64,000 nucleotides of DNA from a virus. The stretch lies in IMG/VR virus record IMGVR_UViG_3300049893_000724, positions 64,001 through 128,000 of that record; one strand, written 5' to 3'. Positions 16,867 through 61,409 of this stretch are shown here, piece by piece. The translations under genes and the position numbers were made by a program. Every line of letters begins with the position of its first letter. The first letter of the stretch is position 1. The notes under the pieces were generated by a model. It saw only the letters and a list, made by a program, of their open reading frames with translations, did not search any database and had not been told where the DNA came from.

Positions 16867-18162
16867 TTAATAAGTACTTACTTTCTTTGCCTTATACTTA
16901 TTTATGAAATTGATGCCGTATGCCTTTCCACCTTTTTGAAGGTATTGTTTATTAGTTCCAACCGCACCTGGGGTCATTTTAGAATAATGAATAAAAGCTC
17001 CTTTTGTTCCAGTTAAAGTATTGGGATGAATTTTATCTCTCATTGGACTATCCATCTTAACTTCAGTATATTCCATCACATCTTTAATCCACGATTTAAA
17101 CATATGTCCATCTTCAGTCACACAAATAAGGTGATTGGTTCCTCTACGCATTACTTCACCAACCAATCCAGTATTTAAGTTTTGTACTGTATCACCAATT
17201 CTAAAAATATTTCCCATAACATAATTCTCACGAAGATTTCTCATATCAAACTTTGGTGCAATTTCCCAAAGATTATAATTTTCTTTCTTAACTTTTTCTT
17301 TCTTTGCACCCATCCCCTGACGAACAGCATTGAATAAATTTTGCGCCTCTCCATCATCAAGAGTTTTTGGAGTTCCTCTACGGAATGAAGCAAAGTCATT
17401 ATCAATAACTGCTTTTCTCATCTTAGATGCAGACATTCCTTCCACACCTTCTGCATCAGCATCACGAACACCTGCAGAGATCACACGAATTTGATCAAAG
17501 TTGTAAAGTTCGCCGTTATACTTTTGAGCAAGATTTTCAAACTCTGCTTGACGATCTGAACCAACAACGATATTGACTGAAGTATATCCGTCTTCGTTTG
17601 CAGTTACAAGAACATTGAAAATTGATTTCATCTCAGGGTCATTGATGATGTTATCCTTAAACTCAGGAAACATCTTCTTCATATACCCAACTTTTTTACT
17701 TGGATCCAGTGGGTTCTTCTTAGGATCCTGAGTTCTTGAAGGATAAATCTTAATATCACCACCAGCAGAAATTCTCTTCGCAGACTTGAGAAGTTTTTCG
17801 TGCCCTACTGTTGGTGGATTGAAGCGACCAAATACAATAGTTAAAGGTGGAAGTTCTTGCGGTTGCTCTTCAGGTGCCTGTGTCGCAGGTGCTGCCTGGG
17901 GTTGTGGTGCAGGTGCTTGTGCCGCTTGAGTTGGTTGCGGTGTTGGAGTTGGTGCAGCAGGTTGTCTTCCACCACCAGGTTCTGGTGCTCCTGCTTGCCT
18001 ACCATCAATGAACTTGAGTTTTCCTTTATCTGTCCTTGCTACCGTCTTTCCACTACGATCTACCCATCCTCCGTGACCGTCTCCACGAAGTCCAAGTTTT
18101 TTTGCCTGCATCGCCGCTTGCGATTCAGTTGCTTCAGATAAAAAATTGAGAAAACTCTTCAT
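16867..18162 (-). CDS. Cytidylyltransferase-like (HxGH-type) protein with Pro/Ala/Gln linker
   Basis: VFGRFNPPTVGHEKLL, VVGSDR, MSASKMR; late promoter ATAAATA upstream. Confidence 0.85.
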   Translation of the reverse strand: MKSFLNFLSEATESQAAMQAKKLGLRGDGHGGWVDRSGKTVARTDKGKLKFIDGRQAGAPEPGGGRQPAAPTPTPQPTQAAQAPAPQPQAAPATQAPEEQPQELPPLTIVFGRFNPPTVGHEKLLKSAKRISAGGDIKIYPSRTQDPKKNPLDPSKKVGYMKKMFPEFKDNIINDPEMKSIFNVLVTANEDGYTSVNIVVGSDRQAEFENLAQKYNGELYNFDQIRVISAGVRDADAEGVEGMSASKMRKAVIDNDFASFRRGTPKTLDDGEAQNLFNAVRQGMGAKKEKVKKENYNLWEIAPKFDMRNLRENYVMGNIFRIGDTVQNLNTGLVGEVMRRGTNHLICVTEDGHMFKSWIKDVMEYTEVKMDSPMRDKIHPNTLTGTKGAFIHYSKMTPGAVGTNKQYLQKGGKAYGINFINKYKAKKVSTY

Positions 18163-18187
18163 ATTTTATATTAATATATTTTATTTA

Positions 18188-20664: not shown

Positions 20665-21065
20665 AGGTCTCCCTCCTTACGATTTTCAGAACGTTCAATA
20701 GTAAAAGCACCCTCAGGATAACGAGCACTCAGTTTCTCAAAGTTCATTTGAATTACTTCTTCAAGAGAAATATCAAGACCAATACACGCTTGGGATACAT
20801 ACCACATAATATCTCCAAGTTCGCGCTTCAGGTGAAACAAGTTTTCTTCATTTACTGGTTTACCTTGGAAAATAATTTTCTTTACAACTTCAGTAAACTC
20901 TCCTGCTTCAGCGGACATTCCTACAGCAGCAGTAAGCAGTCGCTCGGTAGGAAACTCTTGCAGTTCCAAGTCATGAAGACGCTTGAGAAAATCACTATAT
21001 TGTTTGCTGGGGTTTGATGTGGTTGCATCAACGAATTCAACATATTTGTTAAGATCAATAGTCAT
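20661..21065 (-). CDS. mazG: MazG-like NTP pyrophosphohydrolase
   Basis: EAGEFTEVVKK...ELGDIMWY...NFEKLSARYPEG. Confidence 0.93.
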   Translation of the reverse strand: MTIDLNKYVEFVDATTSNPSKQYSDFLKRLHDLELQEFPTERLLTAAVGMSAEAGEFTEVVKKIIFQGKPVNEENLFHLKRELGDIMWYVSQACIGLDISLEEVIQMNFEKLSARYPEGAFTIERSENRKEGDL

Positions 21066-34504: not shown

Positions 34505-34690
34505 TCAGTTAGCAAACTGGTTCTTAAGTTTTTGAAGGTGCTCTTGACTTCCAATACAACCTTTATAACCAGGATAGTATTTTTCTACTACAGAGTTAAT
34601 TCCCATAGCAGTAATGGCACTATCACACTTTACCCAAACTTCTTTGGTGTCATACTTTACAACGTGCTCAAATGGAAATTTAGTTTTCAA
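34505..34690 (-). CDS. Hypothetical protein
   Basis: 61 aa; ATGA coupling. Confidence 0.55.
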   Translation of the reverse strand: MKTKFPFEHVVKYDTKEVWVKCDSAITAMGINSVVEKYYPGYKGCIGSQEHLQKLKNQFAN

Positions 34691-35343
34691 TTTAATTCTC
34701 CAAGTGCCTTTGCCTTACGAACTTTATTAGGTCTTAATTTACCACCTGGATAGTTTCTTTCATCATTACCTTCAAAATCAGGATCTACATTAGCACGATG
34801 TCTTGCTGCTCTATCTGGAGAATATCTATCAGTATGAATATCCTTTCTGCGATTGGGAGCAATCTTATCTGCTGCTCTCTTTTCTTTTTGCTTGAGGGCA
34901 CTACGCTTCTTCTTATAATCTTTAAGAGTCATACCCTCTTCAATTTCAACTTCTTCTTTTCTTGTTCTTTCTGCTTGTTTGCGCTTAGCATATTGCATAT
35001 AAGTTTCACCTGGTTTTAGTCTATTACTATAATCGGGTTTTGTTTGTGCTGAGGTGCTTTGTCCTTTATCTTCACGGGCTCTCATCTGAGGTCCTTTGCC
35101 AGGAAGTTTCTTATCTTGCTCTGGATCTGGATGCCACCAATCACCAGCTTCATTTACAGATTTTTTCTTCGCTTTTTCTTTCTCCAACCAACCACCCTGC
35201 ATTACTCCTGATAAAGGAATTTTTACAGTTGGTTTATCATCAGGATGACCACCATAATCTCTACCTCTGTAATCTGTTCCACGATGGGGACGACCCGTGG
35301 AACGATCATAGGCTTCAAGTGCGAATTGTTGGTAGGTCTTCAT
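34687..35343 (-). CDS. Basic modular protein with T4 IP-like capsid-targeting N-terminus
   Basis: MKTYQQFALE|A; internal VNE|A and EIEE|G; ATAAATA upstream. Confidence 0.75.
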   Translation of the reverse strand: MKTYQQFALEAYDRSTGRPHRGTDYRGRDYGGHPDDKPTVKIPLSGVMQGGWLEKEKAKKKSVNEAGDWWHPDPEQDKKLPGKGPQMRAREDKGQSTSAQTKPDYSNRLKPGETYMQYAKRKQAERTRKEEVEIEEGMTLKDYKKKRSALKQKEKRAADKIAPNRRKDIHTDRYSPDRAARHRANVDPDFEGNDERNYPGGKLRPNKVRKAKALGELN

Positions 35344-44289: not shown

Positions 44290-45726
44290 TCACATGAGGT
44301 TCTTAACAGCAACTCTTCTGTAGTAACGGTTTGCGTCGAGGCGCAGTCTACCGAGACCCTGAGTTGTGCCTTCAGCGAATGGGTTAGCAACAAGACCATA
44401 ACGGGTCTTAAAGCCAATCTTTGGCTGGAAGCTGTTCTCACCAACGGCACGTACCATTTGGAGAGGAACATATGGGCAGTAGAAGAGACCTGCGTCATAA
44501 GGAGATGAACCCTTATAACCAACAACATAATACTGGTTACCTGGGGTTGCGTTAGCAGAGGTCAGGTTAGCAGCATATGGATCGATGTATACGCGGAACT
44601 TACCTAGCAGAGTACCTGCGAAGGTGTTACCGGTGTCATCAACATTCAGGTTAGCGTTGAGTGCTGGGGTGTAATCCAGAACACCAGCCATGGTTAGAGC
44701 GGAAGCAACGTCTGCAGAGCAGAGGATGATGTTGCCCTTTCCACGACGAGTTCTCTGAGCGATTGCGTTTGCATCACGCTCAATCTGGAACAGGAGACCC
44801 TTGAACTTCTCAACTGACCAACGACCATTGGAGTCGATGTCGAGGTCGAAGATACCAGGAGTTGCAACGTTCTGTACAGCACCTTGCTCAGCAACCTTGT
44901 AGATGGTTCTGATAACTTCGCGGTTGATTTCAGCAAGAATCTCAGTTGAGAGAATGTTTGCTAATTCTGCTTCAGCATTCAGACCGTGGATTGCCTTGAG
45001 GTCCTGAGCGAGTTCTAGTGAATACTCAGCCTTCAGAGCGCGTGACTTTGCAGTAACGGTAACTTTCTCGATGCTGAATGCCATCTGGTTGAAAGCATCA
45101 GTGGTGCTTCCATCAAGATTTTCAGCGTCGCCAGTTGCCATACCCTGACCAACGTTATATGGTGAGGGGTTGGTGGTTGCAGTACCAACTGGGTTTAGAA
45201 CTGATGGGTTGGTGCCGCTCTGTGCGGTTGTACCGAAACCAACAGGACCATCCGAATAACCAGCGGTCTCGTCGAATCCAGCATCGTTTCCAGAGAATGC
45301 TGAATCTACTTCGTTATAGAAGGTTTCAGCACCAGTCTGTGACTGATAACGTGAACGCATTGCGAAGATGAGTCCAGTAGGACCGCTCATTGGTTGAACG
45401 CCAGCGAGGTCATAAGCGACCAAGTTTGGCATTGAACGACGGATTAGGCTGATTAGAACTGGGTCGAAACCTGCAGTTGGACCACCAGCAGCGGATGTGC
45501 CACCGAAACCGCCTGAACCACCAGCTGAGTTTGCGCTGTTGGTTGGTGACTCGGTAAGCATACCCATTGAGCCGCTCTCAAAAGAAGCTTGCTCTCTTAG
45601 GAATTTTTCTTGGTTCTCTAACAGGACAGCGGTTACCGCTCTACGATGCGAATCTTTGATTGAATCAAGACCCTCATAGTTGAGGATAGGAGCCCACTTT
45701 TCCTGCAATTGTTCGGAATGGAACAT
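44290..45726 (-). CDS. gp23: Major capsid protein
   Basis: DPVLISLIRRSMPNL, VQPMSGPTGLIFAMR, FYCPYVPLQM, KTRYG. Confidence 0.98.
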   Translation of the reverse strand: MFHSEQLQEKWAPILNYEGLDSIKDSHRRAVTAVLLENQEKFLREQASFESGSMGMLTESPTNSANSAGGSGGFGGTSAAGGPTAGFDPVLISLIRRSMPNLVAYDLAGVQPMSGPTGLIFAMRSRYQSQTGAETFYNEVDSAFSGNDAGFDETAGYSDGPVGFGTTAQSGTNPSVLNPVGTATTNPSPYNVGQGMATGDAENLDGSTTDAFNQMAFSIEKVTVTAKSRALKAEYSLELAQDLKAIHGLNAEAELANILSTEILAEINREVIRTIYKVAEQGAVQNVATPGIFDLDIDSNGRWSVEKFKGLLFQIERDANAIAQRTRRGKGNIILCSADVASALTMAGVLDYTPALNANLNVDDTGNTFAGTLLGKFRVYIDPYAANLTSANATPGNQYYVVGYKGSSPYDAGLFYCPYVPLQMVRAVGENSFQPKIGFKTRYGLVANPFAEGTTQGLGRLRLDANRYYRRVAVKNLM

Positions 45727-45775: not shown

Positions 45776-46948
45776 TCAGTTTTTAGCAACTGCCTTCAGG
45801 GTCTGAAGGTAAGCAGCCATTGTTCCTGAGATTGACTCAGGTGCATTGTCTACCTGTTCAGACAGACTTTCGGATTTTGCTTTTGGAGCTTTCTGTGCTG
45901 AGAAGTATGACTCCTTCAGCATCTCCAGTTTTTCACGATATTGATCTTCACTTTCAAACTCAACACTTTCGGCAAGTGAAGCGAGCTTGTCTTTCTGAGT
46001 AGCAGCGAGGCCCTCAGAGACTTTTTCAAAGATTCCTTCGGCAACCGACTCTGCGAGACGCTTGTTTAGGGAAACGTTCTTCTCAATTTGCTCGTTGAGT
46101 TTTGTTTCCATATCATCAAGTTTTTCTACCATGCTCTCAAGAACATCATATTTATCTTCAGGGATTGATACATAATGTGCTTCAAAAAGTTCCTTCATTC
46201 CTGAGAGGAATGATTCGGTCATTTCGGTCTTAAGACCATTTTCAATAACGAGTGCATTTTCTTGCATCCACTCGTCGGCAACATACTCTAGGTATGCATC
46301 TACACGCTCAGCAAGTTGAGATTTGATTTCTTCAACTTCCTCAGCAAGAGCAGCAGCATACTGCTCTTCAATGGTTTCTTTAATTTCAGAAACCTTGGAA
46401 CGAAGAGCAGCTTCGAAGATGGTACGTGCCTTTTCTTGGAACTCTTCGGAGAGTTCTTCGCCAGATAGAAGAGCATTTACATCCTCTTCAATATCAAAGG
46501 ACTCTTCCATTTCCTCTTCTTCTTCCTCTTCCTCTTCTTCCTCTTCTTCTTTCTTACCTTTCTTCTTACCGCCCTCTTCTTCCTCTTCTTCTTTAGCTTC
46601 TGCTACAACTTCTTCCTCTTCCTCATCAGTTTCTTCTAAGAGTTCTTCATCTTCTTCATAATCTTCTTTTACGCCACCAGGCATTGGCATTGCAGGCTTA
46701 GCACCTTTATTTACAACATCCTTTACTTGCTTAAGAGTGCCACCGGGGGTCTTCAGCTTTGCTGAGTCATCATCTGGACGATAGTTAGAAGGATCAGGAC
46801 CACCTAGATCTTCCCAACTTGCGGTCTGACCTGGGGTTGAACCTGAAAGACTTGGCATCGCATCTGCTGCTTTTGCATTTGCATTAACAGCAGTTTTGGA
46901 TTGCTTAGTGCCTACTTCCATTTCTTGTAATTGTTTACCACGAGACAT
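45776..46948 (-). CDS. gp22: Prohead core scaffold protein
   Basis: Acidic coiled coil, FEAA, YVADEWM.EN; synteny gp21-gp22-gp23. Confidence 0.92.
   Translation of the reverse strand: MSRGKQLQEMEVGTKQSKTAVNANAKAADAMPSLSGSTPGQTASWEDLGGPDPSNYRPDDDSAKLKTPGGTLKQVKDVVNKGAKPAMPMPGGVKEDYEEDEELLEETDEEEEEVVAEAKEEEEEEGGKKKGKKEEEEEEEEEEEEEMEESFDIEEDVNALLSGEELSEEFQEKARTIFEAALRSKVSEIKETIEEQYAAALAEEVEEIKSQLAERVDAYLEYVADEWMQENALVIENGLKTEMTESFLSGMKELFEAHYVSIPEDKYDVLESMVEKLDDMETKLNEQIEKNVSLNKRLAESVAEGIFEKVSEGLAATQKDKLASLAESVEFESEDQYREKLEMLKESYFSAQKAPKAKSESLSEQVDNAPESISGTMAAYLQTLKAVAKN
46500..46665. repeat. Poly-Glu coding microsatellite in gp22 (GAA/GAG runs)
   Basis: TCTTCC/TCTTCT repeats on the plus strand encoding EEEEEE tracts. 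Confidence 0.8.
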
Positions 46949-47002: not shown

Positions 47003-47653
47003 TTACAATGAGTTGATAAACTCATTGAATAGTGATAACTTGTATTCTTCAAGAATACCTTGATCAACTAGAGTATTTATACTACGTTTAGCGTGCTCTG
47101 CTGCCTTTTCCTTCAAAATGCCACCATCCCACACCCATTCTTTACCTTCCATAATTCCCTGAACAAAAGCATCAGGAGCTGAAGGATCTGCTACAATATC
47201 AGCGGCAGTTGCTAGCATAAAATCTTCACCAACTTCAGCATATCCTTCATTGTTTTGTTTTACTGAACCAATACCACGAGAGGAAACGCCAAGAGTAACT
47301 CCTTCTTTTAGAAGTGATTCGGCAATCTTACCCATTGGGGTAGAAAGAATTTGTGCCTTACCAATAAAGTTGTTACCCTCTCTTTGAAGAGAAACAATTT
47401 TATGAGAAACGCGATCAAGGTTTACTGTTGGGCCATCTGGATGTCCAAGTTCACCAAGAGCACGACCTTTGTTTACATACTGCTCGGTGTAACGCTTTAC
47501 CTCTCTTTCCATAACAGGCATACGATACATTCTACCGTTACGGTTCACCACTTCAGTTTGAAGGAAAGGTCCTTGAATATAGAGAGTTTTTTTGCCGTTT
47601 ACACTTTCAGTAATAACTTCTACTGCTTCGATTTCTTCGGTAATGAGTTTCAT
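47003..47653 (-). CDS. gp21: Prohead protease
   Basis: GELGHP, VSSRGIGS, DIVADPSAPDAFV. Confidence 0.96.
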   Translation of the reverse strand: MKLITEEIEAVEVITESVNGKKTLYIQGPFLQTEVVNRNGRMYRMPVMEREVKRYTEQYVNKGRALGELGHPDGPTVNLDRVSHKIVSLQREGNNFIGKAQILSTPMGKIAESLLKEGVTLGVSSRGIGSVKQNNEGYAEVGEDFMLATAADIVADPSAPDAFVQGIMEGKEWVWDGGILKEKAAEHAKRSINTLVDQGILEEYKLSLFNEFINSL

Positions 47654-57246: not shown

Positions 57247-57477
57247 CTACCAATCAGGATATTCCCACTTATCAAGAACTGATGTCACTATTCTACTAGA
57301 AACAATTCTTTTTATTGTACACTCTTTACATTCATAAGAATATGAAGATGCTACAGGGCCCCTATCTTTACGAGTTTGGTAAAAACCATCTATCAAATTT
57401 TTCATTTCTCCACACACTCTACACTTTCTATCCACAAGAAGCAAATGACCCAATCGTATTTGAGCATCAAGTTCCAT
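57247..57477 (-). CDS. Small CxxC Zn-finger protein
   Basis: RKCRVCGE...YECKEC; TAATG coupling to gp17. Confidence 0.6.
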   Translation of the reverse strand: MELDAQIRLGHLLLVDRKCRVCGEMKNLIDGFYQTRKDRGPVASSYSYECKECTIKRIVSSRIVTSVLDKWEYPDW

Positions 57478-59123
57478 TAAGAAAGGTACTCCCACATATA
57501 CGCACGATCACCATATTCATCAACGTGCCATCTATCACCATCAGCATCTACAAAACTTGTGTCATCGAGACCATCCAAAATGAATCCAAAAGGTGACATA
57601 TCTTGCTCAATTTGATTTTTTTGTTCTTCATATAATCTTTTTCTTACATCTTGGTCTGTGAGTTCTTTGAAGTAATCTTGTGCAACTAACCAAGCATAAA
57701 TTACAAGACACATTGCAAGGTCGTCATTACATCCTTCTTCTGCTTCAAATGAATTATGCTTTTGGATGAATGTTGTAAGTTCACTGATAATTTCATAGTC
57801 ATTTATTAGTAACTTACTTTCCTCAATCATAGTCTTTAGATTAAGACATCCAACTTTCTTAACTGTTTTGGACATCTTTACTCCAAGTTGAGTTTTCTTT
57901 CCAGAAAAACCTTGACCAACGATTTGACCTGCTCTGCCTCTCATTGAGCACATTAAAAGATTGTTATATTCCAAATCGTATTGGAGAATACTTGCTACCT
58001 GATCTCCAACGTCATTTACCTCACATAAAATATAAGCACTATTATATGCAGATGCTGTTTCGTGAATTATACTTGGAAATAGCATCGGTTTTATTTCATT
58101 GTTTCTATACTTGGCAACAACTTTATGTGGGAACTGGGTGATATCTACCACAGCAAACGCAGAATAATCATTACCAACCCCTCTAGCAACGTCTACAGTG
58201 ATGAGGTAATCATGATTCTCTACAGGGTCCTCATAAACATCTAAACCAGCACTGCGGGTCTTGGGAGCGTCGTATACGAGGGTTCTGAGTTTGCTTGGTG
58301 CAATGAGAGTATCAACAGAACCTAAGAATTCGCATTCAAATTCTACCTTGAACTGTTGTTCGGAAGTGTTTGCAATTGTTTGTTTTTTCCACTCTTCATC
58401 ACGCCCAGGAACTTCACTCCAATGAACGTCAGTAAAGACATATTCATTTTTACCTTTTTCAGCATCGTGCCACATACGGTAGAAATGATTCATACCGTGT
58501 GGCGTAGAAACTATGATGACTTTTGTTTGTTTACCAGAAGTAATAGTAGGATAAACAGATGCAAAGAACGAGTCTGCAATATGGTTTGGAACGAAAGCGA
58601 ATTCGTCGAGGAAGAGGATATTAAATGACATACCTCGGACAGCACTCGCAGATGTAGAAGCTGCCAATATCTTACTGCCATTTTCTAACTCCAATGAACC
58701 TTTGTTCCAAGCAATAATACCTTGCTGCATCCACTTAGGAAGATTTTCATATGCAGTTTGCAATCTATCAAGAAGTTCTCTTGCGGTTGCCGCTTTGTTT
58801 GCAAGAATACCAATGTTTACATTATCATTAAAAACTGCATAATGCAATAAAAAAGAAACCACGGTTGTAGACTTACCTGTCTGCCTAGGCATCTTACAGA
58901 TATTAAATCTATGATTATGGAAATTATTAATTAACTTCTCTTGGAAATGATATGGTTTAAATGTTTGTAGTCCGTGATCTAGAGTAACAATTTTTACATA
59001 ATTATTTGCAAAATAAACGGGATTATCCTTACATTTCATAAACTCAAGAATTTGTTCTTGAGTAAATTCAATAGGAGTATTTGCTTTTTTTAAAAGCGGA
59101 TTACCGAGATAAACATCACTCAT
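57477..59123 (-). CDS. gp17: Terminase large subunit
   Basis: PRQTGKST, LDEFAF, STPHG, DVARG, DDLAM. Confidence 0.98.
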   Translation of the reverse strand: MSDVYLGNPLLKKANTPIEFTQEQILEFMKCKDNPVYFANNYVKIVTLDHGLQTFKPYHFQEKLINNFHNHRFNICKMPRQTGKSTTVVSFLLHYAVFNDNVNIGILANKAATARELLDRLQTAYENLPKWMQQGIIAWNKGSLELENGSKILAASTSASAVRGMSFNILFLDEFAFVPNHIADSFFASVYPTITSGKQTKVIIVSTPHGMNHFYRMWHDAEKGKNEYVFTDVHWSEVPGRDEEWKKQTIANTSEQQFKVEFECEFLGSVDTLIAPSKLRTLVYDAPKTRSAGLDVYEDPVENHDYLITVDVARGVGNDYSAFAVVDITQFPHKVVAKYRNNEIKPMLFPSIIHETASAYNSAYILCEVNDVGDQVASILQYDLEYNNLLMCSMRGRAGQIVGQGFSGKKTQLGVKMSKTVKKVGCLNLKTMIEESKLLINDYEIISELTTFIQKHNSFEAEEGCNDDLAMCLVIYAWLVAQDYFKELTDQDVRKRLYEEQKNQIEQDMSPFGFILDGLDDTSFVDADGDRWHVDEYGDRAYMWEYLS

Positions 59124-59138
59124 AACAAAACCTACTTA

Positions 59139-60833
59139 TTAATTACAGTTCCAACGACGAAGTGCTTTGTTTATATTGCTATCCGGGTCTCTTGCGGTTT
59201 TTGCTGAAGTCAATTTTGACTTCATCCCCTTCATTCTACGGCAAAAAGACTTACGACGTGCTGCTCTTTTACCTTCTGGATTTTTTTCAGTAACTGCAGT
59301 TTGGAGTTTTGAACCTGGATTCTCACGGCGATATGCTTTTACTGCAGCAGGACTTAATCCATCAGTTTTATCTTGACGATTTACTTTTTGCCAGTCTTCA
59401 TCAACTTCAACTTCTTCGCCCATAGGCTTTACGTAGTTTTTATTAAAACCCGGTTTTCCCGCACTACCGCCTTGATAACCAATTCTGATTAATGGTTGTC
59501 CTGGTTGAATTTCTGAAACTGAATGATAAATTACTTTTGCGCCTGGATAAACCTTTTCAATTTCACTAGAGATTTCACTTCTGGTCGGTAGTTTTGTTTG
59601 TGGGAAAAACATTTGTATGCCGTGATACTTCCCTCTCCAAGAAATAGTAATTGAAATTATATTTCCAGTCTCTGCTTGCAATCTAGTTGCTTCTTCAACC
59701 TGAGACTTAAATCCTTTAATTGGTTCTGGGTTAATTAAATCAACGACCTCAGCAAAGGTGTTTCCATTTGCATCTTCTATTGTTTGCTCAGGAACGCAGT
59801 TTGGAACCATTTTCTTTCCTTTCTTTTTCATGCCAACTTGCTTATAACCAGACCAACACGCTTCATCCATTTCCCCACTTGCAACATAATCTGCCGCAGT
59901 ATCAATATAATCTGCTGCTTTTGTAATTTTAGATTGTACCCATGCTTCTAAATCTCCTTCACCTTTACCTACTTTCATTTGAAGTCTTTTTACAGCATCA
60001 GCAATAGTTTTTAACTCAGATCTTGCCATTGAATATTCATGATCTTTAATGGAAACCTTATCCCATGCCTTTCCGCCATATGAACATTCAGATCTAGTTT
60101 CTCTCTTATCACACAATGGACAGTATCTTTGTTCTTCAACTGCTTCTGACTTAGTTCCCCAGTTATCCGCACCAACTTTGCGGCACTTGACTAATGCACC
60201 TGAAGCATATGCACTTGGCCAAACACTATAACGTGATTTTACTTTGTGGTAGCAAGCATCTTTTTTGCCGCTACCTTTACCTGGTTTATCTTTTGCTTCT
60301 TGTACATCCATTTCTTCTTTCATTTTCTTTCTAGGTGAATCTGTAGAAACATAGGTTGGTTTTGCGGCACCTGATTTTTGTTGCTGGCCAGGATCCGCTT
60401 CTTTTTTTCTTCTTGCTGCAGATAGTCTCTCTGCTTTAGTCATAGTCGCTCTTTTTGCAGAAGAAACACACTTAGGAACTCCTTCTCCAGGTTCATCACT
60501 TGCACATGTCCCACCAGTTACTACATTAACCCAACCAGACTTTCCATCTTTTGATTTAGACTTTCCAAACCAATCACGAAGTCCCTCTTCGGTAACATCT
60601 TTAAATTTTTTATGGTGCTTCTTAGCATCCGCTTCCATTTTTTTCAAACGAGTATAATAATCTGGTATTTCATCCAGATGTTGAAGAGCAATGTCCATTG
60701 CAAGTTCATGATCTTTAGTGTGTTCATGTTCAATAGGTTCACCCATATCAAGTTGCTTCTGAATGAAAGAAACATCAAGACGATGCTTTTTTGCAATCTG
60801 CTCAACTGTTTTATGTGGTTTAATTTTGGGCAT
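59139..60833 (-). CDS. Modular basic polyprotein-like protein (DUF5661-like N-terminus)
   Basis: 564 aa of short modules separated by E|A/E|G/E|D sites; five modules carry Cys pairs. Confidence 0.75.
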   Translation of the reverse strand: MPKIKPHKTVEQIAKKHRLDVSFIQKQLDMGEPIEHEHTKDHELAMDIALQHLDEIPDYYTRLKKMEADAKKHHKKFKDVTEEGLRDWFGKSKSKDGKSGWVNVVTGGTCASDEPGEGVPKCVSSAKRATMTKAERLSAARRKKEADPGQQQKSGAAKPTYVSTDSPRKKMKEEMDVQEAKDKPGKGSGKKDACYHKVKSRYSVWPSAYASGALVKCRKVGADNWGTKSEAVEEQRYCPLCDKRETRSECSYGGKAWDKVSIKDHEYSMARSELKTIADAVKRLQMKVGKGEGDLEAWVQSKITKAADYIDTAADYVASGEMDEACWSGYKQVGMKKKGKKMVPNCVPEQTIEDANGNTFAEVVDLINPEPIKGFKSQVEEATRLQAETGNIISITISWRGKYHGIQMFFPQTKLPTRSEISSEIEKVYPGAKVIYHSVSEIQPGQPLIRIGYQGGSAGKPGFNKNYVKPMGEEVEVDEDWQKVNRQDKTDGLSPAAVKAYRRENPGSKLQTAVTEKNPEGKRAARRKSFCRRMKGMKSKLTSAKTARDPDSNINKALRRWNCN

Positions 60834-60988
60834 TATTCAACTGGTTTTGATTTAGTCTGCTCACCTTTTGCTCTTTTTTTTCTCCCCGCACAATGAGCAC
60901 GTTGAGAAAATCCTTTTGGATTTGAGCAATCAATACTCTTTTTATATTTATTAGTCCACTCTTCTTGAAACTGCTTAAACGTTTTCAT
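60833..60988 (-). CDS. 51-aa basic peptide with IPI-like capsid-targeting N-terminus
   Basis: MKTFKQFQEEWTNKYKKSIDCSNPKGFSQRAHCAGRKKRAKGEQTKSKPVE*; coupled to both neighbours. Confidence 0.65.
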   Translation of the reverse strand: MKTFKQFQEEWTNKYKKSIDCSNPKGFSQRAHCAGRKKRAKGEQTKSKPVE

Positions 60989-61409
60989 CTTGAGTTTGTT
61001 GTTTTAATAGTTTTGCTAGTTCTGCAGTGGATCCCACAAAAAGTGCATTATTAACTGTAGTGGGACCTTTACTAATTTTTTCTTCTTCAATATCTTTTAG
61101 TTTTTTCTGAAGATCCATTAATTTATCTGTTGCATCAGCCACATTTTTAATAAGTTGACCGGCAACTTCATACGCTCTTGGCATTTCACTTTCCTGTGCA
61201 AGTTCAAGAATCCCATTGATTGCTTCTTGTCCTTTTTCAATCAAAGAATACAAATTTCCTCTGGTGTATTCATAATCTTTTTTGATATCATCTACAGTTG
61301 AAGCGATTTTTTCTACTTTTTCGATAGAAGTATCAACGTCAGTAGAAACTATTTCTCCTGATACATTAAAAGTATTATTCAATTCATCAAATTTTTTTGT
61401 CATTTTCAT
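60975..61409 (-). CDS. gp16: Terminase small subunit
   Basis: DYEYTRGNLY, AQESEMPRAYEV, NNALFVGST. Confidence 0.93.
   Translation of the reverse strand: MKMTKKFDELNNTFNVSGEIVSTDVDTSIEKVEKIASTVDDIKKDYEYTRGNLYSLIEKGQEAINGILELAQESEMPRAYEVAGQLIKNVADATDKLMDLQKKLKDIEEEKISKGPTTVNNALFVGSTAELAKLLKQQTQDENV

Follow-up and report, generated by a model that had tools for sequence, protein, structure and literature searches.

A reshuffled string of small, mostly cysteine-paired modules between the terminase genes of a T4-like cyanophage may be a packaged and cleaved polyprotein

Between the two terminase genes of a T4-like cyanophage, gp16 and gp17, lie a 51-amino-acid (aa) open reading frame (ORF) and, coupled to it, a 564-aa ORF whose product (P0001) reads as a string of small, mostly basic and mostly cysteine-paired modules. 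We analysed this gene pair in a window of 64,000 nucleotides (nt), positions 64,001 to 128,000 of the IMG/VR virus record IMGVR_UViG_3300049893_000724. The modules of the 564-aa protein are freely rearranged among its relatives, most of them begin close behind a hydrophobic-x-Glu motif of the kind cut by the T4 prohead protease gp21, and relatives have been found in purified virions. The explanation we favour, with a probability of about 0.5, is a polyprotein that is packaged in the head and cut by gp21. The gene pair, its parts and the flanking terminase genes are as follows (window coordinates; Cys numbered by residue of the 564-aa protein; a vertical bar marks the proposed cut; pI, isoelectric point):

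60975-61409, minus strand: gp16, small terminase (PF11053, phrog_445)
60833-60988, minus strand: 51-aa ORF (module M0), with a 14-nt overlap with the end of gp16
60959-60988, minus strand: ten-residue leader MKTFKQFQEE of the 51-aa ORF, with aromatic residues at positions 4 and 7 and Glu at 9 and 10
59139-60833, minus strand: 564-aa modular ORF (P0001), pI 9.4, 11 Cys
60588-60833, minus strand: Unit 1 (M1), residues 1-82, helical DUF5661 module with an EHEHT motif and no Cys, ending ...KDVTE|E
60297-60587, minus strand: Unit 2 (M2), residues 83-179, GLRDWF...GWV...C110-x11-C122, basic, with a disordered tail, ending ...MDVQE|A
60135-60296, minus strand: Unit 3 (M3), residues 180-233, KDKPGKGSGKKDAC194YHKVKSRY.VWPSAYASGALVKC217RKVG, ending ...EAVE|E
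59862-60134, minus strand: Unit 4 (M4a+M4b), residues 234-324, an RYC238PLC241...C250 knuckle and then M4b, ending ...GEMDE|A
59691-59861, minus strand: Unit 5 (M5+M6a), residues 325-381, a C326WSGYKQVGMKKKGKKMVPNC346 beta-hairpin and then TIEDANGNTF, ending ...SQVEE|A
59397-59690, minus strand: Unit 6 (M6b), residues 382-479, beta-beta-alpha-beta with no Cys and a disordered tail, ending ...EVEVDE|D
59142-59396, minus strand: Unit 7 (M7), residues 480-564, helical and basic DUF6321 module, pI 10.3, C531...C563
57477-59123, minus strand: gp17, large terminase (Terminase_6N/6C)

The 564-aa protein starts MPKIKPHKTVEQ and carries two Pfam domains, DUF5661 (PF18905; E 3.1e-13, 50.3 bits for a cut-off of 27) at its N-terminal end and DUF6321 (PF19846; E 3.7e-13, 50.3 bits for a cut-off of 28.5) at its C-terminal end. 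Its PHROG matches, among them phrog_727 (E 2e-107) and phrog_3477, are all annotated as function unknown; phrog_12753 and phrog_3477 are matched by M2. An initial annotation made from the sequence alone had placed both ORFs between gp16 and gp17, where we also find them, and all six of the linkers and five Cys motifs that it quoted are present in the translation. The linkers are DVTE|E (residues 79-83), DVQE|A (176-180), EAVE|E (230-234), EMDE|A (321-325), QVEE|A (378-382) and EVDE|D (476-480), and the cysteines are C110/C122, C194/C217, C238/C241/C250, C326/C346 and C531/C563. Across 57-132 diverged instances per module each Cys position is conserved in at least 94%, mostly in 100%, and the M2 pair is kept in 115 of 115. 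M2, M3, M5, M6b and M7 have pI values of 9.1-10.3, and M4b is a helical hairpin, DHEYSMAR...AWVQSKITKAADYID. The seven modules counted by the initial annotation stand as seven units bounded by hydrophobic-x-Glu; homology divides the protein more finely, into nine segments (M1 1-82, M2 83-175, M3 176-233, M4a 234-262, M4b 263-322, M5 323-350, M6a 351-380, M6b 381-475 and M7 476-564), with M4 and M5/M6 each split.

An AlphaFold2 model computed from an 86-sequence alignment has a mean predicted local distance difference test (pLDDT) score of 75.9 and a predicted template modelling (pTM) score of 0.31. The modules themselves reach pLDDT 80-96 (M1 about 90-96, M6b above 90), and the segments below 50 (residues 79-84, 169-189, 229-231, 360-371, 375-385 and 452-478) coincide with five of the six junctions. 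With its low pTM and its low-confidence linkers at the junctions, the model depicts confident separate modules without a fixed mutual arrangement, not the single globule that would have spoken against a modular protein.

An exhaustive HMMER search returned 10,989 clusters of relatives at 50% identity (E<=1e-3), and we mapped the nine modules on the 150 best representatives of these clusters. More than 80 distinct module orders occur among the 150, 78 of which are non-collinear with the 564-aa protein, and its modules cover on average 58% of each representative, the rest being other modules. The order is M2-M4b-M3-M5-M4a-M6-M7 in phage S-T4, with M4a and M4b apart and reordered, and M4a...M2...M3-M5-M7 in S-SM1; M2 is duplicated in P0076. 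Close homologues (64-92% identical) differ by insertion, deletion and duplication of whole modules precisely at the junctions, for example by an extra module after M1 or an insert of about 50 aa between M4b and M5. Most tellingly, close homologues carry the core of the 51-aa ORF, WSDKYKKSIDC.NPKGFSQRAHCQGRKKK, as an in-frame insert between M2 and M3, and the module of this ORF also occurs in frame within the polyproteins P0072, P0084 and P0115.

Modules also occur alone. M7 stands alone in pelagiphage HTVC034P and in the T7-like cyanopodovirus P-SCSP1g, M3 in Roseobacter phage CRP-902 (gp70), and M6b in 80-aa clusters of the ESM Atlas. The stand-alone M7 and M3 proteins of the podoviruses and the roseophage begin at the basic module (MAKTPLWQRKAGKN..., MAQKKNVRLKMGKHK..., MAAKKKPKRDACY...), with no acidic leader; T7-like phages are not known to encode a T4-type prohead protease. 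The shuffling, duplication and stand-alone copies for which the initial annotation had proposed to look in related phages are thus all found, podoviruses included, and the modules are independent evolutionary units. The source genome itself holds a stand-alone M5 copy in its early region, a 52-aa ORF with the CW.GY...C hairpin at genome positions 20744-20899 (plus strand), outside the window (module profile E 0.002). The M7 copy of P-SCSP1g (L008:2459-2877) is an 84-aa DUF6321 protein encoded between the major capsid and tail-tube genes and adjoined by a 58-aa hyper-basic ORF (MAKKKGLYANIHAKRKRIKAGSGEKMRKPG...). Cryo-electron microscopy of its relative P-SCSP1u reported no capsid decoration protein, and both small P-SCSP1g products may therefore be internal or non-structural.

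We placed junctions family-wide by projecting the start of each module's profile onto the representatives. Of 699 junctions, 510 (73%) have a [LIVMF]-x-E motif whose end lies between -6 and +1 relative to the start of the module, compared with a mean of 102 (15%) and a maximum of 127 for random positions in the same proteins over 200 trials; at a single fixed offset it is present in 313 of 588 junctions, against a per-position background of 1.9%. Its share rises to 83-95% at the starts of M3, M5, M6b and M7. The motif precedes unrelated modules irrespective of the upstream neighbour, in the forms [VIML]xE|G/E before M2, [VL]xE|[AV]KDK before M3, [VIL]xE|[AK]CW before M5, [VILF]xE|A before M6b and hydrophobic-x-E|DWQ or AW before M7, with similar forms at M1 and M4a. 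When close homologues are aligned, the Glu at P1 and a hydrophobic residue at P3 are kept and P2 is free, as in SQ[V/I/M/L][E/D/K/T]E|A; in T4, processing is blocked by an Asp at P1. In the 564-aa protein, nine of the 13 [LIVM]xE motifs fall inside the six inter-module linkers. We also considered the motif as a recombination signal at the DNA level and, from its protein form, think this unlikely, because a free P2 and a degenerate P3 leave at most five conserved nucleotides.

T4 gp21 cuts after Glu in L/I-X-E and was first seen to do so at a Glu-Ala bond in gp22 (PMC9026906). The junction motif matches this published specificity, and the window encodes both gp21 and gp23:

47003-47653, minus strand: gp21, prohead core serine protease (PF03420 Peptidase_S77, E 9e-38)
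44290-45726, minus strand: gp23, major capsid protein, with ...GMLTE59|S60 aligned with T4 ...SFLTE65|A66

The window gp21 is 43% identical to that of T4 (E 2e-34). In gp23, L-T-E is kept at the T4 cleavage position as read from the T4 record, which agrees with the published T4 propeptide of 65 residues (PMC9026906). The proposal of the initial annotation that the Glu-terminated linkers are gp21-type sites thus gains some support: the motif is enriched across the family, it corresponds to the published specificity, and a gp21 is encoded.

Conservation marks the 51-aa ORF as a real gene. It has 239 clusters of stand-alone homologues, most of those listed being 51 aa long and most of these sharing the leader MKTFKQFQE[E/D/S], which is followed by a basic W..KYKKSIDC..PKGFSQ.AHC.GRKK peptide. 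This ORF and a polyprotein gene are paired again, overlapping by 4 nt, in another neighbourhood (metagenomic contig L012). In the T4 record, IPII and IPIII start MKTYQEFIAE|A; targeting in T4 depends on residues 4 and 7 of the leader, and processing on residues 8 and 10 (PMC9026906). Position 8 of the 51-aa leader is Q, not I or L, and F7-Q8-E9 fits hydrophobic-x-Glu. The leader, which the initial annotation had called IPI-like, thus resembles the capsid-targeting sequence of T4 IPII and IPIII. Upstream of a 1010-aa relative of the polyprotein (P0198), which likewise lies between gp16 and gp17, the 51-aa ORF is replaced by a 65-aa four-Cys protein (L013:1820-2017) with the leader MKSFQQFLFE|D; this protein has weak HiPIP and BAS4 Pfam matches. 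Upstream of the polyprotein, a minimum of two unrelated small proteins thus carry the leader.

Two further genes of the window encode leaders of this type:

34687-35343, minus strand: second modular protein, 218 aa, leader MKTYQQFALE|A, phrog_727 match
16867-18162, minus strand: cytidylyltransferase, 431 aa, phrog_395, leader MKSFLNFLSE|A, with AATAAATA 20 nt upstream of its start

Modules of the 218-aa protein (GDWWHPDP..., RLKPGETYMQYAKR...) occur within the S-SM1 polyprotein, with junctions VNE|A and IEE|. It is a second, leader-bearing member of the same module pool, elsewhere in the genome. The cytidylyltransferase family (T4-GC190) was found in S-SM1 virions (PMC3037559). In phage S-CREM2, the cytidylyltransferase gp154 has the leader MKNFSSFLTE|A, and ORF136, the gene between gp16 and ORF137, has the leader MQTFSMFFSE|D; both proteins are in the virion proteome (PMC10665884). 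Because these leader-bearing proteins and T4-GC190 are in virions, there is circumstantial support for the leader working as a capsid address in cyanomyoviruses. It would also explain the packaging of the cytidylyltransferase, an enzyme known as an oddity in cyanophage virion proteomes.

Relatives of the 564-aa protein are themselves associated with virions. In Sullivan et al. 2010 (PMC3037559) the family appears as gene cluster T4-GC119, present in 15 of 16 cyanomyoviruses with gene lengths of 276-2985 nt, absent from S-PM2, and listed as 'Structural protein' with 13 peptide counts in purified S-SM1 virions (PMC3037559 Table S8). By BLASTP, M3, M7, M2 and M4a match the S-SM1 member SSM1_115 (E 6e-23 to 2e-10), and PSSM2_123 of P-SSM2 is matched by tblastn. 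The S-CREM2 homologue ORF137, which ends in M7 and lies between gp16 and gp17, was identified in the virion proteome by four unique peptides (PMC10665884 Table 3). Whole purified particles of S-SM1 and S-CREM2 thus contain relatives. S-SCSM1 has a collinear homologue, ORF29 (E 1e-91), that bears the annotation 'virion protein'; the authors of this record had analysed virions by mass spectrometry. Two further candidates, the S-T4 'virion structural protein' beside gp17 and ORF31 of S-SCSM1, are unrelated to the 564-aa protein.

We propose that the 51-aa and 564-aa ORFs are a cassette of two late genes that encode capsid cargo. Its long product would be a flexible chain of mini-proteins that fold separately, mostly basic and mostly held by an invariant Cys pair, perhaps through a disulfide or a metal, and it would be incorporated into the prohead core. 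Once there, it would be cut by gp21 behind the Glu of the hydrophobic-x-Glu ahead of each unit, giving some seven small proteins (6-11 kDa) that are retained in the head alongside the DNA and correspond in function to the internal proteins of T4. Entry of the 51-aa product would rely on its ten-residue T4-like leader, which the same cleavage would then remove after residue 9 or 10. Head entry, cleavage, retention and the role of the peptides are all inferred here. The basic charge suggests DNA binding or charge neutralisation, and the very fast turnover of modules suggests host-directed effectors, with which it fits better than with a housekeeping role in condensing DNA. Taken furthest, the cassette would deliver a combinatorial library of Cys-stapled mini-protein effectors, released by gp21 and injected with the DNA, each with a different host target such as a defence system, the transcription machinery or a nucleoid protein; an arms race would then have left its mark in the extreme module shuffling seen among near-identical phages. 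We offer this extension tentatively and think it improbable.

Several observations weigh against packaging and cleavage. The 564-aa ORF has no capsid-targeting leader, and none of the 150 representatives starts MKxFxxFxxE, so that a leader of this kind would not account for its entry into the prohead. The linkers are Glu-rich anyway, with a hydrophobic-x-Glu density of 0.026 outside modules compared with 0.013 inside. The starts of M4b and M6a carry the motif in only about one third of cases, which is why we take M4a+M4b and M5+M6a as usually one unit each and so arrive at the same seven units as the first count. At the extreme N-terminus of many relatives the motif is present as well (MINE|EGL..., MTLTE|GSL...), where a cut would free only 4-7 residues, and so the motif might be intrinsic to modules or linkers. 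T4 Alt loses 7 residues (PMC9026906); by this analogy, the N-terminal motif would be equally compatible with short propeptides and with a feature of the modules. As for the virions, the Syn9 homologue is annotated and was not detected in Syn9 particles (PMC3037559 Table S8), and the coverage of S-CREM2 ORF137 is only 4.1% (PMC10665884 Table 3). The published proteomes consist of peptide counts and coverage values, and low coverage, which is expected of Lys/Arg-rich sequences, does not separate the full-length protein from fragments.

The rival that survives best is an uncleaved multidomain virion or late protein, one flexible polypeptide that could, for example, tether DNA or proteins multivalently within the particle or at its surface, with hydrophobic-x-Glu merely a favoured linker or module-cap sequence. 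It accommodates the persistence of the motif at protein N-termini, where cleavage would have no clear purpose, the missing targeting leader, the generally acidic linkers, and virion studies in which relatives but no fragments were reported. Harder to reconcile with it are seven unrelated folds that all start after one three-residue pattern with a free P2 and any upstream neighbour, motif residues that are modelled as disordered and not packed on the module, and the same modules functioning alone in other phages. We regard it as possible, if somewhat doubtful.

A prohead core or scaffold accessory like T4 gp22, gp67 and gp68 would also be cut by gp21, at the same type of motif, with an assembly role and with most pieces leaving before DNA packaging. 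T4 core proteins are indeed cut into multiple fragments that leave the head (PMC9026906), the low or absent virion coverage (S-CREM2, Syn9) would follow, and the long poly-Glu tract of the window gp22 could hold basic modules. An assembly factor should be conserved, however, and here the module content varies between phages that are 80-90% identical elsewhere; the wide range of gene lengths across 15 cyanophages and the absence from S-PM2 tell in the same direction, and the invariant Cys pairs and podovirus stand-alone copies point to autonomous functions. We consider this role unlikely. Least probable, and very unlikely in our view, is a non-structural late protein, such as a nucleic-acid-binding or regulatory factor, whose virion signal is carry-over of a sticky basic protein: stand-alone modules among non-structural genes of HTVC034P and in the early region of the source genome, low peptide counts and the lack of detection in Syn9 would suit it, but relatives were found in caesium chloride-purified virions in two studies (S-SM1, S-CREM2), the S-SCSM1 relative carries its virion annotation, and in many phages the gene sits inside the gp13-gp20 structural operon, coupled between the terminase genes.

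If the polyprotein is packaged and cut, its closest known counterparts are the T4 pathway of internal proteins, capsid-targeting sequence and gp21, and the multiply cut proteins of phiKZ-like phages. With T4 IPI, IPII, IPIII and Alt, the gp21-processed head proteins, the cassette would share late expression, a small and basic character, a leader with aromatics at targeting positions 4 and 7 (MKTFKQFQEE here, MKTYQEFIAE in T4), cutting after Glu at hydrophobic-x-Glu by a gp21 homologue, and a non-essential, highly variable cargo. The mature parts have no homology in sequence or fold. T4 uses one leader per protein, whereas here one long ORF, itself leaderless, strings together many cargo units and carries its sites internally, and the units, 25-100 aa, mostly have invariant Cys pairs; cleavage and packaging are predicted from sequence in our case. 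The inner-body and ejection proteins of phiKZ, 201phi2-1 and SPN3US are cut by a gp21-related protease after Glu at x-x-E, often at several sites, into products that either remain beside the DNA or leave the head by ejection (PMC9026906, PMC5694885). They are, however, large and mainly trimmed of propeptides, not strings of unrelated mini-domains; their motif is S/A-x-E instead of hydrophobic-x-E, and they have no domains in common with the 564-aa protein.

The polyvalent proteins of Iyer et al. 2017 (PMC5512222) likewise combine many unrelated domains in combinatorial architectures, have solo versions, and are encoded beside virion genes; they are predicted to be packaged and delivered with DNA, with proteolytic release of domains proposed, as here. 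Their domains are enzymatic or DNA-protecting (ARTs, nucleases, ArdC, MuF) and they carry their own zincin-like peptidase, whereas the modules here are tiny and non-enzymatic and the proposed protease, gp21, acts in trans. None of the polyvalent signature domains (MuF, ArdC, zincin-like MPTase, ARTs, nucleases) was found by Pfam in the 564-aa protein and 78 of its shuffled relatives. T4 gp22, gp67 and gp68 share multiple L/I-x-E cuts into small peptides inside the prohead, predicted here, but are conserved assembly proteins, acidic or helical and without Cys, and most of their fragments exit the head. New in the present family are the many tiny, mostly Cys-paired cargo units joined in one reshuffled ORF, the proposed cut sites that are internal and cut in trans, and its occurrence in very abundant ocean phages.

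Few viruses in the sea are as abundant as the T4-like cyanophages, and the family comprises about 11,000 clusters at 50% identity. If our preferred explanation is right, the T4 scheme of leader and gp21, known from coliphages and giant phages, would also load cyanophage cargo, and many cargo proteins would have been condensed in evolution into one polyprotein that is cleavable and freely reshuffled. The hypervariability of the locus would be explained, and the family would offer a ready set of dozens of tiny autonomous folds, probably disulfide-stabilised, as well as a natural scaffold with which foreign proteins could be packaged into marine phages. Should the effector library exist, few undescribed systems of host takeover or counter-defence in the ocean would be as abundant.

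Searches for function and fold returned little beyond the family itself. Comparison of the 564-aa protein with PDB chain sequences gave only chance matches (E>0.5), Foldseek found nothing in the PDB for the whole model at E<=0.001 and only members of the same family in BFVD, and the ESM Atlas returned only unnamed viral clusters. Searching Pfam module by module at E<=10 gave a weak DUF5872 match for M3 (E 0.05) and otherwise spurious rows, and Pfam detected no enzyme or known functional domain in the 78 shuffled relatives; the domains in these and the 564-aa protein are only DUF6321, DUF5661, DUF192, DUF5872, DUF3008, DUF2630 and IF2_N. The best rows of VIA-align with the whole model paired M1 with the RNA polymerase omega subunit (Z 5.4), and M6b with Bacillus subtilis RNA polymerase epsilon (Z 4.7) and T7 Gp2 (Z 3.9). 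Folded alone, M6b has pLDDT 78 and pTM 0.60, and a structure search with it gave no Z >=5 and no Foldseek E <0.7. We take these matches to reflect a beta-beta-alpha-beta arrangement that is common, not RNA polymerase binding. Database names for the matches of the 564-aa protein are only 'hypothetical', DUF5661 or DUF6321, and in the literature searched we found no paper describing the DUF5661/DUF6321 modular family, in line with the suggestion of the initial annotation that single-gene annotation had missed the system.

The source genome is that of a 184-kb T4-like, Kyanoviridae-like cyanomyovirus, and by gp17-gp18 DNA (about 78% identity) its nearest isolates are SynMITS9220M01, Bellamy, S-SCSM1 and S-SM2. 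On the minus strand the order is gp16, the 51-aa ORF, the 564-aa ORF, gp17, an endonuclease VII-like gene, gp18, gp19 and gp20, with gp21, gp22 and gp23 farther downstream:

57247-57495, minus strand: endonuclease VII-like zinc-finger ORF, 82 aa (phrog_4723), overlapping the end of gp17

Mobile cassettes associated with homing endonucleases occupy the g16-g17 region of other cyanophages (Sullivan et al. 2010, PMC3037559). The TAA stop of the 51-aa ORF and the ATG of the 564-aa ORF overlap as TAATG, and we rejected a programmed frameshift fusing the two, since this is a plain overlap with no slippery heptamer. The gp22 scaffold (45776-46948, minus strand) contains a near-pure Glu/Asp tract of about 60 residues (...EEDEELLEETDEEEEE...EEEEEEEEEEEEEE...), whose charge, speculatively, might retain basic cargo modules within the prohead core.

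The sequence AATAAATA occurs 14 times in the window, always on the coding strand, compared with 6.5 expected, and none of 100 shuffles reached 14. Examples, all on the minus strand, lie at 18182, 46981, 52402, 54349, 57200 and 60945. For five of the 14 copies, a late or structural gene starts 20-36 nt downstream, as it would behind a T4-type late promoter. The copy at 60945-60952 falls inside the 51-aa ORF, 112 nt upstream of the polyprotein ATG, and could be an internal promoter or merely reflect conserved N-K-Y codons.

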